DNA of 25,667 bases from a virus (taxonomy: Duplodnaviria > Heunggongvirae > Uroviricota > Caudoviricetes). Positions 12,001-18,000 of the stretch are shown piece by piece. Position numbers: made by a program. The stretch lies in IMG/VR virus record IMGVR_UViG_646311923_000009. The stretch is one strand, 5' to 3'. Each line of letters begins with the position of its first letter. Positions within the stretch are counted from its first letter, which is position 1.

Positions 12001-15000
12001 TGGCTTACCACAACACGCACACGGCTGTGTCTTTACCCAGCGTGTGTATTTCTCATTTACCCAGCGGCGACGTTTAGGTCGTTTCATGAAGGATTCCGGA
12101 GACTCCGGATCAACGGCAATGCTGACCACCGTCTTTTCCTGTGGTGGGTTCTGTTGCTGGTGGGTGTGAGGCGGTAGCGCAATATTTTTTGTGCGCTGCT
12201 TCAGTATGCTGGTGGCGGTCTGCTCTCCCGGTACGATGTCGCTTTCGCGGTACAAGGAGCGGATTTTTTCCACACGTAACCCCAGAGAACGACGTAATAC
12301 GGCCTCCGGTAGCGCGTCCGCCACCTGATTGCGGACCGCCCACCAGGATAATTCAGCCAGAGATAATTCACGCTCCTGCGTACCGCTTATTGCGTGACCG
12401 ATGACGTCAATCATCCATGCTGACAGGTTTTGATGAGCAAGTTGCTCGAGTGATTCGGATGTCTGGTCCCGTAGCTGGTTGTCGCAGTGCCAGCACAACA
12501 CCATTGCGCCGGTACCATAACGGTGAATGACAGTTTCGCTGTGGTGATAATCGCCGTGTGGCCACTGGCAGGATTTAATATGGCGCAACAGCCAGTCAGA
12601 CAATGCACCAGCACCACCAGCAGCACGAATCACTCGTTCGTCGCTGAAAAATGGCAGCAATGTTTTGTCTTCCACCAGCGGCTGGCGAACGGCAGGAACG
12701 ACCCCGGACGGCAGATTACGCATGCTTTTCGGTTCCGGCTCCACCAGTACCCGGGTATTGTGAAATACCTGCATGGATTCACGACCTGGCTTAAGGACCA
12801 CCAGCCCGAGTTCCGGTACCAGAACAGGTCGAAGTAATACCCGCACGTTACCTCCAGATCCGTTGCTGGAATGTGCGGGACGGACGCGGTGGGCGTTCGG
12901 AGTAAGGAAGCCTGACGGAGATTATCCAGTGACGATAATCGAGGCTGAGGGCTTTCCTAAACTCATACCCACGTCTGCGGTAGTTCTGAATCAGCCATTC
13001 GGCCTGTTCTTCAGTGCATGGGTCGTGCCGGAACCAGTCAGATTTGAATGCATGAGAACGCCGCCCGTGCCTGCTGGCAAAGACGGCTGAATTATCAGAA
13101 TTGTGTAGTCTGGAATTTTGCGCCATCGGCTTTCTCCGGTGGCACAGTGTTACTCAACAGGGGTTCAGCCCTGCGCTGAATTGTAGATGAATTCACTCAT
13201 CTTCAAAAGCAGAAAAACCAGCCTTAATCCCAGCGTCTTTCAGAGACGGCAACGATGTGACAAATTCATTTGCACGCAAAATAAAACCATCCGTCACAAG
13301 CCCATCCACAAAATGAATTAACGCAGCTCCACTCTTCCTTTGTTGAGACTGTAAACATTTAATACGGCAGTGGCTGACAATAGCGCCATTCTCAACGCGC
13401 ACAGTATAGAGGCCATCTTCACTAAAAATTTCACGTAATTCTTCGATTTTCATCAACAGAATCCTTCCAGATAAATAGCACTCCCCTGTTCGGGGTCCAT
13501 CCCTCTTCTCCCTGCGCGCTACTTAAGTATTTTTGATTCTATTCCGGCGCCGTCCGGAACTTCAAACGCGTTGAAAATAAAAACAAAAACCCGCCGAAGC
13601 GGGTTAAGTGCGGGTGCGTTGAGGATGCCTGACACATCAGAGGTGGCGAGGGATTTCTCCCCCGCCTGGTCTCTTACTCCTCAGGTTCGTAAGCTGTGAA
13701 GACAGCGACCTCCGTCTGGCCGGTTCGGATTCGTACCTCGCAGAGGTCTTTCCTCGTTACCAGTGCCGTCACTATGACGGTTAAACAGATGACGATCAGG
13801 GCGATTAACATCGCCTTTTGCTGCTTCATAGCCTGCTTCTCCTTGACCTTTCGGTCCGTAAGAGGCAATCTATATGTGACGAGCATATAGGGGCCTCACT
13901 TCGATTTATAGTCGGGTGGGGCTTTTATCTATCTGCCGTTGGTGTTCATGCCCGAGGCAGATAGCCTCAAGCACCCGCAGCAATTCTACTTAACTCTGCC
14001 GTTACAGCAAGCCGTTTTCGTCCGATATGGGAATTCCCATATCGGAATGAATTCAGTTCACCTGGCGAGGCTTAGCGTACAATTTTTTCCGTTTTGTGAG
14101 CTGCCCCTACATGCCGCTGGCGCGGCATCCGGAAAAAGAATCCACGTCCTGAAGGACGTGGAGGATGTCAAGTGCCTTTCCTGGTCCAGCCATATTTTTT
14201 GAATGCAGGCGCCGCTTCATCGGTTTGTAGCCATTCTGCAAATCGACGGGTTTCATCATTTGCATCCTGACGTACTGTAATGTTCATATCACGCCATATC
14301 ACGTAGTCTGGCGCTATTTCCACGACATCACCAATTTCTGGATTACTGGCTGCCCAGTCAGCCCAGGTTATCCAGACATCTGCTTCAGGCTGATTCTCAA
14401 GAGCCTTACGTGCAGTTCCGCTATTGGGCGCATATAAAATAATATTTTTTCGGATTGCGGCGACAGTTTCTATATTCCCTTTACGTCCGGCAATATCTTC
14501 CCAGACGCCAGTGCCTGATGTATTACTGGTACCACCACCATCATTAACAATTACGCCAATCCCGGGTCTGGTCAGGTCGTCAATACTCCGGATATTTTTA
14601 GGATTACCTTTCTTTACCAGTAAAATACTTTTTCGCAGATAAAGAGGCTGAATATCTTTTTCACTGAAGCTGTCTTTATGGTCCCGAATGATAGCCAGAG
14701 CAGATTGTTCTGATGCGCCAAACAAGATATCTGCATTTTTTTTGGCATCTTCATTCCATTTGTTCTGTGGGCCGTAATGAACGTTCACTATAATACCTGT
14801 TTTTTCGGCATAAAGTTTGGCTGCATCAAGCAAGGCTGTATGCGGGCCACCAGGACCATACAGATTGATATCAGCATAAGCAGCAGAAGACAGGAATATT
14901 AAAAAACCTGCCATTATGTTCCTCATAAAAAACTCCTTTTATTGGTTATCATGAAATAAAGTTATAAACACTACAAATAATATATATTACATCCAGATAA

Positions 15001-18000
15001 ACTTATCCGACTTTACCTCGTGCATAGCTTGTTATTTAAAGTTAACAAAATAAGGAAAATTATACGCATATTGAAGAGTATAAACCTTACATGTTGATTA
15101 CATTTTTGTAATCAACATCCTGTTTGGAATAGCCAGCCTTTAATGGATAACTATTTCTGACAATGCAATGAGTATAATCAAGTCCATCTTCCACTGAGAA
15201 TTAGAGGCGGCATGCTTTTTCCGGCTCTTGCCGGATATCCGTAATTGTCCATAATCTGCAGATTTATACCTTCAGCATGACCTGCCAGCGAAAATTTGTC
15301 CGGTGTTTCTACGGAAATAACATCAAAAGTTACACGCACTCGCGTTACCGTGTAGACCTACTTTCCTGCACTTGCAAGATCACAGTGGTGTAACCGTAAC
15401 AGGAATTTATTCTCTGGACCGGCAGTAAATCCCTGAGTGACGTGGTTCCCATATCAATTTCCAGCCAGGCAGCCTCCATTGCCAGCGTACTGGCTGGAGC
15501 CATGACCTGCCCTTTAAATCTGGCCCGACCATCCCACCGGACGTGTTCTTCTCCCCTGAACTTAGGTACAGTCATCTCCAGTGGCACAAAAGTGTCAGCG
15601 CCATGATTTTTGACCGTTATCGCGCTACGGATATTTTGTTGACTGGTGAAAATTACCCCGCAGAATCAGGCTTATTCCCTTAACCCGGGCTTTCATCCTG
15701 ACCGCCGCCTCACTACGACCAATCAGACTGCCGATGCATTTTACCTTCATTGTTAGTATCATAATTTCAGGCCTGCACCATCCGCTCATTGCCCGGACTT
15801 CCGACAAATCCCGGCAACCATATCTCGGTGCTTGTTCAGCTCCCGCAGCGCGGCGCAGACTCGCTCCCACTTCTGGACATGACTTTTCGCCCGACGCAAT
15901 TCGCGGTTTGCCATATGCAGCGATGGTAAAACCAGGTCATCCGCTCGCGTTTCAGTAAACGATGGCAACGATTGCACAATATCAGCCACAGTTTCTGTTT
16001 TAATATCTTCCTGTGTTGCAGCTTCCTGTACTGGTAACGCAACACCTGCTGACTGAGGAAAGGCTTTACCATCATTTTCCGTTACCGGCACGGATTTCGG
16101 CTCTGCTGGTAACTTATCGCCCGGCATGCAGTAACGAAATTTACCGTTCTGGTTTACACGAATCAGACGACCTTTGCTGATTGCCATTGCCAGCGTTGAA
16201 GCCACTTTGCGTGATGTTGTACCGAACAACGTAGCCAGCTCATCAGCCGTTTGTGGTCCGCGTTGTTCAACCGTCGCAGTTAAATCGCACTCCGAAATTT
16301 TAGCGACTGTTGCCGTGGTGGTTTCTTCCGACAGTTCTGCCGGCGCTGGCTGTTCCTGCTGAACGTTGTTATAAGCCACACGCCAGGTGTATACGCTTTT
16401 ATCAACGAAGCCAGCCTTTCTCAGTTCCCACAGCTCGTTCAGCACTTCTTCACGACTGATATCAAGTCGCGCAGCCAGCTCTACCGACGTGGCTTTTCCC
16501 ATCGCTTTCAGTGCGTCAAAAACAGTCTCCATAAATTTCCTCCCGGTAAAAATTACTTCTCAAATCAGACAAACCCAGCCGCTTTCCGGCGTTCATATTC
16601 CTGTTTCAGCAACTCAATTGGCGTTGGTCCCGCAGGACGTTTGGGTGCTGCCAGTTGTCGCCGGACAGGCGGAACACTCAGGCCGTTGCTAACATGCTTT
16701 GCCCATTTCGTCAGCTGCCGTTCTGCAAGCCGTTTTAACTCCCCTTCGGTCATCTGGCGTTCAATCCCCTTTGAACGCATCTCGAGGCAAATGTGATACA
16801 GCACAGGCTGAGACCACGGGTACTTATCACTTCCGTCGTATCGCCAGGACTCATTGCGCCAGCGGCGGTACTCCTCCATCACAGCATCCACCGTCAGACC
16901 AAATGGATTGGCCCCGCTTTCCGAAATCAGCGCCACAAACTCAGCCAGGTCCGGAGGCCATGTTTCACCCGCCCGGCAGCAGTCCATGCACTGGCGGCAG
17001 ACCTGCCGGATTTGCTGCTCAGTCATCGCGCCAATCTGTGCAATCCAGAGCTTCGAAGGTGCGGCCCCGTTCTTCTGGGTCCAGCGGTTCGAATAAACCT
17101 CCCCCATGAGCTCCCACAGCTTCCAGGCCGTTTCCGTCGCTGATAAATCCGTTTTCACGTTCCCACTGCTCACGTGCTGCCCGAATTTCCTGAACTGCCC
17201 GTGATGCGGTTCCACCTGGTGCTGCTGCATGGTTTACCCCCTTGCTGACTGGTTTAACCTGCGCCCTGACGTGATTTACGTGACGGGCGAATTTCTGCTC
17301 CCACTGAACCTGCGTAAACACTTTCCCCTCCGCTGCCCAGTAGTCCCGGAATGCGGCAAGTTCAGCAGGTGTGAATTCTGTCTCCGGCAAAGCCATCCCC
17401 CACAACGCAGCCCGTCGTCGAAAATCCCGTGACGGATACCAGTTATCGGTCATCGGAAATTTTCCGATGGGTTCGCTCAGGCCATCCAGGAATACAGGGG
17501 GGACTGCCTGTAACGACAAAACTTCCTGCTCACTGGTCGGAGCACTCTCGCGTGCGTTATGTGTGGGGTTTAAATCTTTGGGTTCCTTTGGGTTCCGTGA
17601 TCCGTTTTTGGGTGTCTTTGATGGAAAATTTGGGTGTCTTTGGTTATTTTCCATGCAGCAAAGAGTTCCGTTTTTGGGGCTGTTTTGTGCTGAAACATAA
17701 CCGTTTTCGGTTCTGTTTTTATTAACAGTACCAATTTTACCTACCTTTAAAGACTCCCGTTTTTGGGTGTATTCATCCTCGGTAACACTTTCTTCAACAC
17801 CGATAAGTCGGTACACCACAATTTGTTTTGTCCGGCCTTTTCTCTCACCGGTATCAACAATTAACCCAATCTCCATCAGGTGTCGTAAGCTGTCCTGCAC
17901 AGTCTTTTTGTTCAGTTCCGTTACTTCTGCCAGTGCAGATACAGACGGGTATGCACACAAATCGGCACCGCACATATCAGCAAGCCAGGTCAATACTGAC

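Follow-up and report, generated by a model that had tools for sequence, protein, structure and literature searches.

A conserved palindromic core upstream of the colonisation-factor gene paa (adfO), carried as a cassette in a degraded lambdoid prophage of Escherichia coli

Introduction

What does a lambdoid prophage carry a lone periplasmic binding protein for? The question is raised by the virus record IMGVR_UViG_646311923_000009 of IMG/VR, a 25,667-nucleotide stretch of DNA assigned to the Caudoviricetes (hereafter the window, always at its full length). A first-pass annotation, made from the sequence alone, described in it an orphan, ModA-like solute-binding protein gene, a so-called moron, that sits between the replication module and hok and is preceded by an operator-like inverted repeat. 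No function was thought to have been described for such a gene in lambdoid prophages, and ligand sequestration, receptor masking or signalling were proposed as roles to which it might have been recruited. Here we report that the open reading frame (ORF) in question is paa, called adfO in E. coli O157:H7, which is a long-known colonisation factor of pathogenic E. coli. Paa was reportedly described by Batisson et al. in 2003. We ask to which family of binding proteins Paa belongs, how its gene came to lie in the prophage, and what the palindromic sequence in front of it may do.

Results

The window is identical at every base to positions 1784368-1810034 of the chromosome of E. coli O103:H2 str. 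12009 (NC_013353.1), and the RefSeq annotation of that chromosome names the ORF 'paa: AcfC family adhesin Paa' (DNA identity 100%). In GenBank records of PPompW prophages the same ORF appears as 'porcine attaching-effacing associated protein Paa/adherence factor AdfO', and the copy in O157:H7 is adfO (Z2053, O-island 57), with a DNA identity of 99.5%. The gene is present in 611 of the 5,426 complete E. coli genomes searched, and 577 records match at an identity of at least 99%. It is thus an already known gene and a named virulence-associated factor of enteropathogenic, enterohaemorrhagic and enterotoxigenic E. coli (EPEC, EHEC and ETEC); the Paa/AdfO of these pathotypes is the same gene, with the same hok/ckf neighbour and the same position in the prophage. 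A review of the O-islands of O157:H7 lists adfO (Z2053, OI-57) as a virulence factor similar to Paa, reports poor adherence to HeLa cells and a reduced secretion of several proteins for an adfO mutant, and states that adfO is invariably accompanied by ckf (Z2054), a hok-type gene (PMC8565820). Given this naming and the published adfO phenotype, the view that no function has been described for the gene in lambdoid prophages is wrong; it has been both annotated and discussed (PMC8565820, PMC5976639, PMC8524897).

The sequence places Paa in the AcfC/PEB3 family, as a predicted exported protein (about 26 kDa) that has the type II periplasmic-binding fold. Its residues 20-247 match the Pfam family SBP_bac_11 (PF13531) over profile positions 1-226 of 227 (E=1.6e-34), and it matches phrog_11834 with E=2.5e-176. 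In a phmmer search against the PDB the closest solved structure is PEB3 of Campylobacter jejuni (E=4.1e-82, query residues 11-248), and AcfC of Vibrio cholerae matches over its full length (E=1.5e-81, query residues 16-248); the identity of Paa to both solved structures is about 55-57%, and its homologues bear the names AcfC or PEB3. The N-terminus reads as a typical Sec signal with an AXA-type cleavage site, MRNIMAGFLIFLSSAAYA, followed by DINLYGPGG, and the alignment with PEB3 begins in this region. As the protein contains no Cys, it is not a lipoprotein.

The label ModA-like holds at the level of the superfamily but not for ModA itself, since Paa scores 18.6 bits with the ModA model TIGR01256 against a cut-off of 62.5, and PRK03537 and other models also remain far below their cut-offs. 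An identity as Sbp or CysP was likewise rejected: the scores are 19-23 bits against cut-offs of 155-308 (NF008022, TIGR00971, NF008106), and the matches are limited to some 50 residues around the anion loop. This loop, SNTSGTGVWED, is common to Paa and PEB3 and lies in the only part of Paa with a weak likeness to sulfate-binding proteins. ModA and Sbp/CysP share with Paa the Pfam SBP_bac_11 superfamily and a similar anion-binding loop. Paa differs from Sbp/CysP in being about 60-80 residues shorter, and from all of them in having no permease or ATPase partner.

The absence of a partner is not peculiar to the prophage. A dedicated permease adjoins the gene in none of about 15 contexts, which cover eight genera and include the window, phages, plasmids and chromosomes. 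No adjoining permease or ATPase gene was found in the window, the PPompW phages, eight plasmids, Edwardsiella, Raoultella or Francisella, nor in E. albertii, where the homologue lies inside the aga locus, in Campylobacter, where it lies next to cdtABC, or in a TCP-like island (TCP, toxin-coregulated pilus) of Vibrio. The stand-alone state is therefore a property of the AcfC family, and the description of the gene as an orphan is borne out both here and in related genomes. The nearest to an exception is a copy in Enterobacter, located 690 bp after an ATP-binding cassette (ABC) operon.

These contexts bear on whether Paa could be an ordinary nutrient-uptake protein that delivers 3-phosphoglycerate, sulfate or thiosulfate to a distant permease and affects adherence only indirectly. 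This would fit with the weak, sub-threshold similarity of Paa to sulfate and thiosulfate binding proteins, with the position of the Enterobacter copy, and with a description of PEB3 as part of a transporter for metabolites that carry phosphate, among them 3-phosphoglycerate (PMC12469816). The Enterobacter ABC operon, however, already has a binding protein of its own; no permease is adjacent in the contexts from Enterobacterales, Aeromonas, Vibrio, Campylobacter and Francisella; and the DNA unit that holds paa moves alone between replicons. On balance we regard a role in ordinary uptake as rather unlikely.

Two of the contexts deserve description in their own right. In Enterobacter bugandensis (L018, L019, 5001-5750) the homologue stands between the complete ABC operon and genes for a BvgS/EvgS-type hybrid kinase and a GerE-type response regulator, and no copy of the palindrome found upstream of paa occurs upstream of it. 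In Aeromonas (L020, L021, 5001-5774) a homologue with 56% identity has been inserted as a single gene into a P2-like prophage, where it lies between replication gene A and ogr/portal. Here an unrelated type of phage has captured an AcfC-family gene independently.

Comparison with lambdoid prophages that lack paa defines how the gene is built into the window. The backbone homology stops at 14068 and restarts at 15616, and between these points lies an insert of about 1.55 kb that is composed of 36 nt of filler, the paa cassette, a fimbrial gene fragment and about 20 nt of filler (Table 1). The G+C content of the insert is 43%, against about 51% in its flanks. Prophages without paa fill the same gap with small accessory genes (DUF977, DUF551 and an 'eae-like' protein), and other lambdoid phages match the hok/sok side only, up to about 14018. 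An insert with its own terminator, absent at the same place from related phage backbones, has the features of a moron, and the use of that term for this self-contained unit is upheld. The first-pass annotation was also right about a lone gene for a binding protein with a signal peptide between the replication module and hok, about its strong Shine-Dalgarno sequence, its own terminator and its AT-rich upstream region, and about the presence and position of the inverted repeat and the TATAAT element; to its account of the location we add that the gene is on the minus strand. Neither a captured fragment of a host ABC operon nor a protein lacking a signal peptide or a binding fold was found.

The cassette within the insert is 1,026 bp long. 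On the upstream side it begins 12 nt beyond the inverted repeat; it takes in the gene with its terminator and reaches as far as a hairpin that resembles a repetitive extragenic palindromic (REP) element. Homology with plasmids, at 85-89% identity, is confined to it (positions 206-1231 when 13900-15800 is used as the query). The plasmids that carry it include ETEC-type plasmids, one of which also carries sta1, for heat-stable enterotoxin. A copy on the E. albertii plasmid pEA26_2 is frameshifted, and two of the E. coli-type plasmid copies have lost part of the terminator.

The upstream end of the cassette, at about 15130, is identical in the prophage and in four plasmid types (L003-L006), and the DNA beyond it is unrelated: debris of the insertion sequences IS21 and IS66, a Tn3 transposase fragment, or the fimbrial fragment. 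The latter adjoins the cassette exactly where the plasmid homology ends. It derives from a PapH-like minor-subunit gene, lacks both ends, contains frameshifts and stops, and is 85% identical to an intact gene (locus L007, 5931-6518). When an ancestral neighbourhood with both a fimbrial operon and paa was sought, the intact PapH-like gene proved to belong to an ordinary pap-like usher operon, and paa was absent from its neighbourhood. The pseudogene annotated in RefSeq extends to 15087 because its reading frame merely runs on, and the inverted repeat is part of the paa cassette, not of the fimbrial gene. The fimbrial fragment and the backbone junction occur together in 573 genomes, from which we conclude that the chromosomal copies stem from one acquisition and have spread with the prophage.

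The distribution of the cassette also bears on the proposal that Paa is an undescribed, orphan binding protein with a new role linked to the phage, for instance in masking receptors or in controlling superinfection. The gene is indeed an orphan borne by a phage, and PHROGs lists its family as of 'unknown function'. Yet paa/adfO is already named and has published mutant phenotypes in adherence to host cells, and the same cassette is found on plasmids, and on chromosomes outside phages, which means that the role of Paa is not tied to phage biology. A dedicated phage function is therefore extremely improbable.

The region upstream of paa contains the perfect 12-bp inverted repeat that had been described as operator-like, ATGTTGATTACA-N4-TGTAATCAACAT. 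It lies in a 204-nt stretch before the ATG (14927-15130) with a G+C content of 26%, compared with 47.5% for the whole window. Among 300 Markov shuffles of the whole window, 5 contained a perfect repeat with arms of 12 bp or more around a loop no longer than 10 nt; when the AT-rich upstream region was shuffled by itself, a repeat of this size arose in 25 of 20,000 trials. To see whether the repeat marks a regulon, we searched the 5,426 genomes with a 51-nt probe and found it solely with paa in E. coli (608 genomes). Matches to the 12-mer with up to two mismatches occur at chance level in the window and not at all in the prophage immunity region; these searches do not exclude degenerate sites. 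No Rfam family was found at the repeat.

To judge which part of the repeat is conserved we rely on six diverged cassettes with a homologous upstream region, namely that of the window, those of four plasmid types and that of the Salmonella plasmid pSalMiami. Of the 16 columns of the inner part, which reads ATTACA-AAAA-TGTAAT in the direction of the gene, 14 are invariant. These 16 bp form the best 16-nt window of the upstream region, a value reached by 30 of 20,000 column permutations. Pairwise identity is 0.92-1.0 in this core, 0.94 in TATAAT and 0.78 at third codon positions, as against 0.64-0.77 in the other upstream sequence and 0.47-0.68, or on another count 0.47-0.73, in the outer 6 bp of the arms. 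Four of the six copies are exactly symmetrical in the inner 6+6 bp. Judged from this alignment, conservation does not extend to the outer arms, and the prophage allele alone has the full 12-bp symmetry; of the operator-like repeat, then, the inner 16 bp stand as a conserved element while the 12-bp symmetry does not. The outer arms change without compensation, and the loop is kept like the inner arms, which is the pattern of a protein-binding site rather than of an RNA or DNA stem. The alignment suggests that the core is probably a regulatory site.

It is relevant here that the repeat could instead act as a hairpin in RNA or DNA, either as a terminator or insulator against read-through from upstream or as a 5′ stabiliser of the transcript. 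It does fold at -13.8 kcal/mol as a centroid structure (z = -2.8 against shuffles), and it is placed at the upstream edge of the cassette. However, it is not followed by a U-run on either strand, the terminator scan did not call it, and the lack of compensating changes in the outer arms, together with a loop kept as strongly as the inner arms, is not what a stem would show. Moreover, if TATAAT is the -10 element, the repeat is not transcribed with paa. We consider a hairpin function very unlikely.

The common upstream end of the cassette could be taken as a sign that the palindrome is a scar left by recombination or marks where a mobile unit ends, in other words a recombinase site or a hot spot of breakage, and at least five unrelated flanks do share this end, 12 nt beyond the repeat. 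The opposite end of the cassette has no matching repeat, target duplications were not seen, and the cassette contains no recombinase gene. The decay of the distal arm fits an eroding boundary rather than a recognised end, and a shared end would equally result if selection kept the promoter intact. We hold an origin in recombination to be distinctly unlikely, and return to the core as a probable regulatory site.

Downstream of the core the candidate -10 hexamer TATAAT is invariant in five of the copies and reads TATAGT in pSalMiami, and in the -35 region a block AGGTTTA, a poor match to TTGACA, is invariant in all six aligned cassettes. The centre of the core lies 40.5 bp upstream of the first base of TATAAT, or at about -52 if transcription starts 6-7 nt after the hexamer. 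This position, and the non-consensus -35 region, suggest a promoter that is activator-dependent or UP-assisted rather than one with a classical repressor operator. We infer both the promoter assignment and the role of the palindrome from sequence features.

Alternatively, the core may simply be an A/T-rich, UP-like element contacted by the alpha subunit of RNA polymerase, with incidental symmetry. Its distance of about 33-48 bp upstream of TATAAT is within the range of UP elements, it contains an A-tract, and the -35 region is weak. UP elements are not palindromic, however, and the inner symmetry is exact in most of the copies, so that this reading of the core seems fairly improbable next to that of a site for a dimeric regulator.

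Known operators were compared with the repeat, and none fits. The consensus for FNR is TTGAT-N4-ATCAA and that for CRP is TGTGA-N6-TCACA; the repeat contains TTGAT and ATCAA, but 12 bp apart, and it contains neither TGTGA nor TCACA. The EvgA box, reportedly described by Itou et al. in 2009, is said to consist of inverted TTCYTACA half-sites with 2 bp between them, and for this comparison we used the emrK-evgA region of K-12, which reads TTCTTACGCCTGTAGGAT. The repeat of paa, TGATTACA-AAAA-TGTAATCA, shares TTACA/TGTAA with that box, but its spacer is 4 bp instead of 2 and the outer bases differ. The operators of TyrR, ArgR, LacI-type, GntR-type and LysR-type (T-N11-A) regulators, CpxR and OmpR do not fit either.

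Table 1. Features of the paa insert and of the adjoining hok/sok module, in positions of the window.
Feature	Position	Strand	Remarks
paa (adfO) coding sequence, 252 aa	14168..14926	-	ORF, Pfam, phrog_11834, RefSeq, PDB homologues
Predicted Sec signal peptide codons, MRNIMAGFLIFLSSAAYA	14873..14926	-	Cleavage after AYA; read from sequence
Shine-Dalgarno sequence AAGGAG	14933..14938	-	6 nt before ATG; AAAAGGA kept in plasmid copies
Intrinsic terminator hairpin of paa, then TTCTTTTT	14141..14162	-	Terminator scan
REP-like hairpin ATGCCGC-N4-GCGGCAT	14111..14128		Cassette 3′ end, downstream of terminator; kept in all E. coli-type plasmid copies
Candidate -10 hexamer TATAAT of paa promoter	15059..15064	-	Six aligned cassettes
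AGGTTTA block, -35 region	15081..15087	-	Six aligned cassettes
Perfect 12-bp inverted repeat ATGTTGATTACA-N4-TGTAATCAACAT	15091..15118		Arms 15091-15102 and 15107-15118, 4-nt loop
Conserved 16-bp core, putative regulatory site	15097..15112		Alignment of six diverged cassettes
paa cassette: promoter region, gene, terminator, REP-like hairpin	14105..15130	-	Plasmid matches
PapH-like fimbrial minor-subunit gene fragment	15128..15596	-	Pseudogene per RefSeq; three-frame translation
Whole insert versus paa-less lambdoid prophages	14069..15615		Backbone gap
hok	13674-13829		Part of complete hok/sok module 13584-13976
sok	13827-13976		Rfam; sole real Rfam match in the region
hok/sok terminator	13605..13588		Terminator of the module

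The terminator of paa has a stem of nine pairs according to the terminator scan, and perfect 10-bp arms in the inverted-repeat analysis. As for the surroundings, the host element is a degraded, defective lambdoid prophage inserted in ydfJ. It contains int/xis, exo, dicB, a CI/Cro-type switch, O/P-like replication genes, hok/sok, rusA and an antiterminator, with paa between the replication genes and hok/sok, as well as pseudogenes of YdfR, a TerB-like protein and nleG7. The lysis region is interrupted by an IS3 element, and no structural genes were found within the window. A gene for a SASA-family carbohydrate esterase is located at 7577-9514.

Three further sequences were observed. A weak, sub-threshold isrK-like match lies at 13584-13665, within the span of the hok/sok module. 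Just upstream of hok/sok, at 14021-14046, is a 26-bp perfect palindrome, TCCGATATGGGAATTCCCATATCGGA, the longest of the window, which belongs to the lambdoid backbone and occurs in paa-less prophages with one base deleted. At 4517-4550, in the broken late region and adjoining remnants of a transposase, is another perfect 12-bp inverted repeat, TACAATCAATGC-N10-GCATTGATTGTA, with a TTGATT half-site that is loosely like the repeat of paa.

Discussion

We favor the explanation that paa is a lysogenic-conversion gene in an insert of a degraded lambdoid prophage, which would act without a dedicated importer and under a putative promoter of its own, and taken as a whole this is very probably correct. 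In a lysogen, the cassette would be transcribed from its own promoter independently of phage induction, and most likely a dimeric host regulator bound to the 16-bp core, or possibly a UP-like element, would tune that promoter. The exported Paa would then bind an anionic ligand bearing sulfate or phosphate, either in the periplasm or on the surface after release, and may thereby promote colonisation with no importer of its own, either by binding in the manner of a lectin or by sensing the ligand and docking on another membrane protein.

Several published observations concern the gene and its homologues. Reviews describe both paa and adfO mutants as poorly adherent (adfO in PMC8565820). The gene of strain EDL933 is induced in the contents of the bovine rumen and rectum (PMC8524897), and paa/Z2053 is not under the control of Fur (PMC4382993). 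AcfC is periplasmic, binds hyaluronic acid less well than it does heparin, chondroitin sulfate and mucin, and promotes chemotaxis directed towards mucin (PMC5976639). The earlier suggestion of ligand sensing or signalling agrees with the ideas published for this homologue; the phage-linked novelty that went with it does not hold.

Several points weigh against the explanation that we favor. How a protein with a binding fold brings about 'adhesion' is unsettled in the literature, and AcfC promotes chemotaxis, not cell adhesion (PMC5976639). For the promoter, the -35 region is poor, a consensus promoter scan did not call the TATAAT site, and no start site, footprint or regulator of paa was found in the searchable literature. 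Close homologues on the E. albertii chromosome and on pCf1-5, pUTAK18 and pCFSAN022633 have unrelated upstream regions, so the palindrome is not needed for the gene and belongs to one cassette lineage.

Comparison with known systems helps to place the gene. AcfC (PDB 4JB7) is a full-length homologue and, like Paa, an exported, stand-alone colonisation factor. Its gene lies on the TCP island downstream of the chemoreceptor gene acfB and is controlled by ToxT, whereas paa belongs to a prophage and plasmid cassette with a different promoter region. PEB3 (PDB 2HXW, 3FIR, 3FJG, 3FJ7, 3FJM) is also encoded by a stand-alone gene, but this is a chromosomal core gene, repressed by BumR, with an N-glycosylated product, whereas paa is mobile and has the regulatory setting of E. 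coli. Among lambdoid morons, bor, lom and the cargo that flanks stx have, like the paa insert, their own promoter region and terminator, a low G+C content and a position between backbone genes, and like it are of use to the host during lysogeny. Unlike these, the paa cassette also circulates on plasmids, and it came with a scrap of a fimbrial operon.

It is tempting to go further and to speculate that ATTACA-N4-TGTAAT is the operator of a host regulator common to E. coli and Salmonella that turns paa on in the gut, and that the AcfC family consists of permease-independent periplasmic anion sensors which unrelated temperate phages have captured repeatedly. We put this forward tentatively, as a possible but doubtful extension of the explanation given above.

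To a specialist the identity of the gene will not be surprising, as paa/adfO is a routine marker in the virulence typing of Shiga toxin-producing E. coli, EPEC and ETEC. What we add is modest: the conserved 16-bp core, the precise make-up of the composite insert, and the capture of a member of the family, in parallel, by a P2-like prophage of Aeromonas. In the searchable literature on Paa/AdfO we found neither the palindrome of the promoter nor the fimbrial fragment described, nor the precise borders of the insert. Apparently nothing has been published on the regulation of paa, for which the core palindrome and the TATAAT element offer a concrete, testable handle. In conclusion, the cassette structure, with its common end point and the fimbrial scrap dragged along, explains why the same gene is found in the prophages of EHEC and on the plasmids of ETEC.

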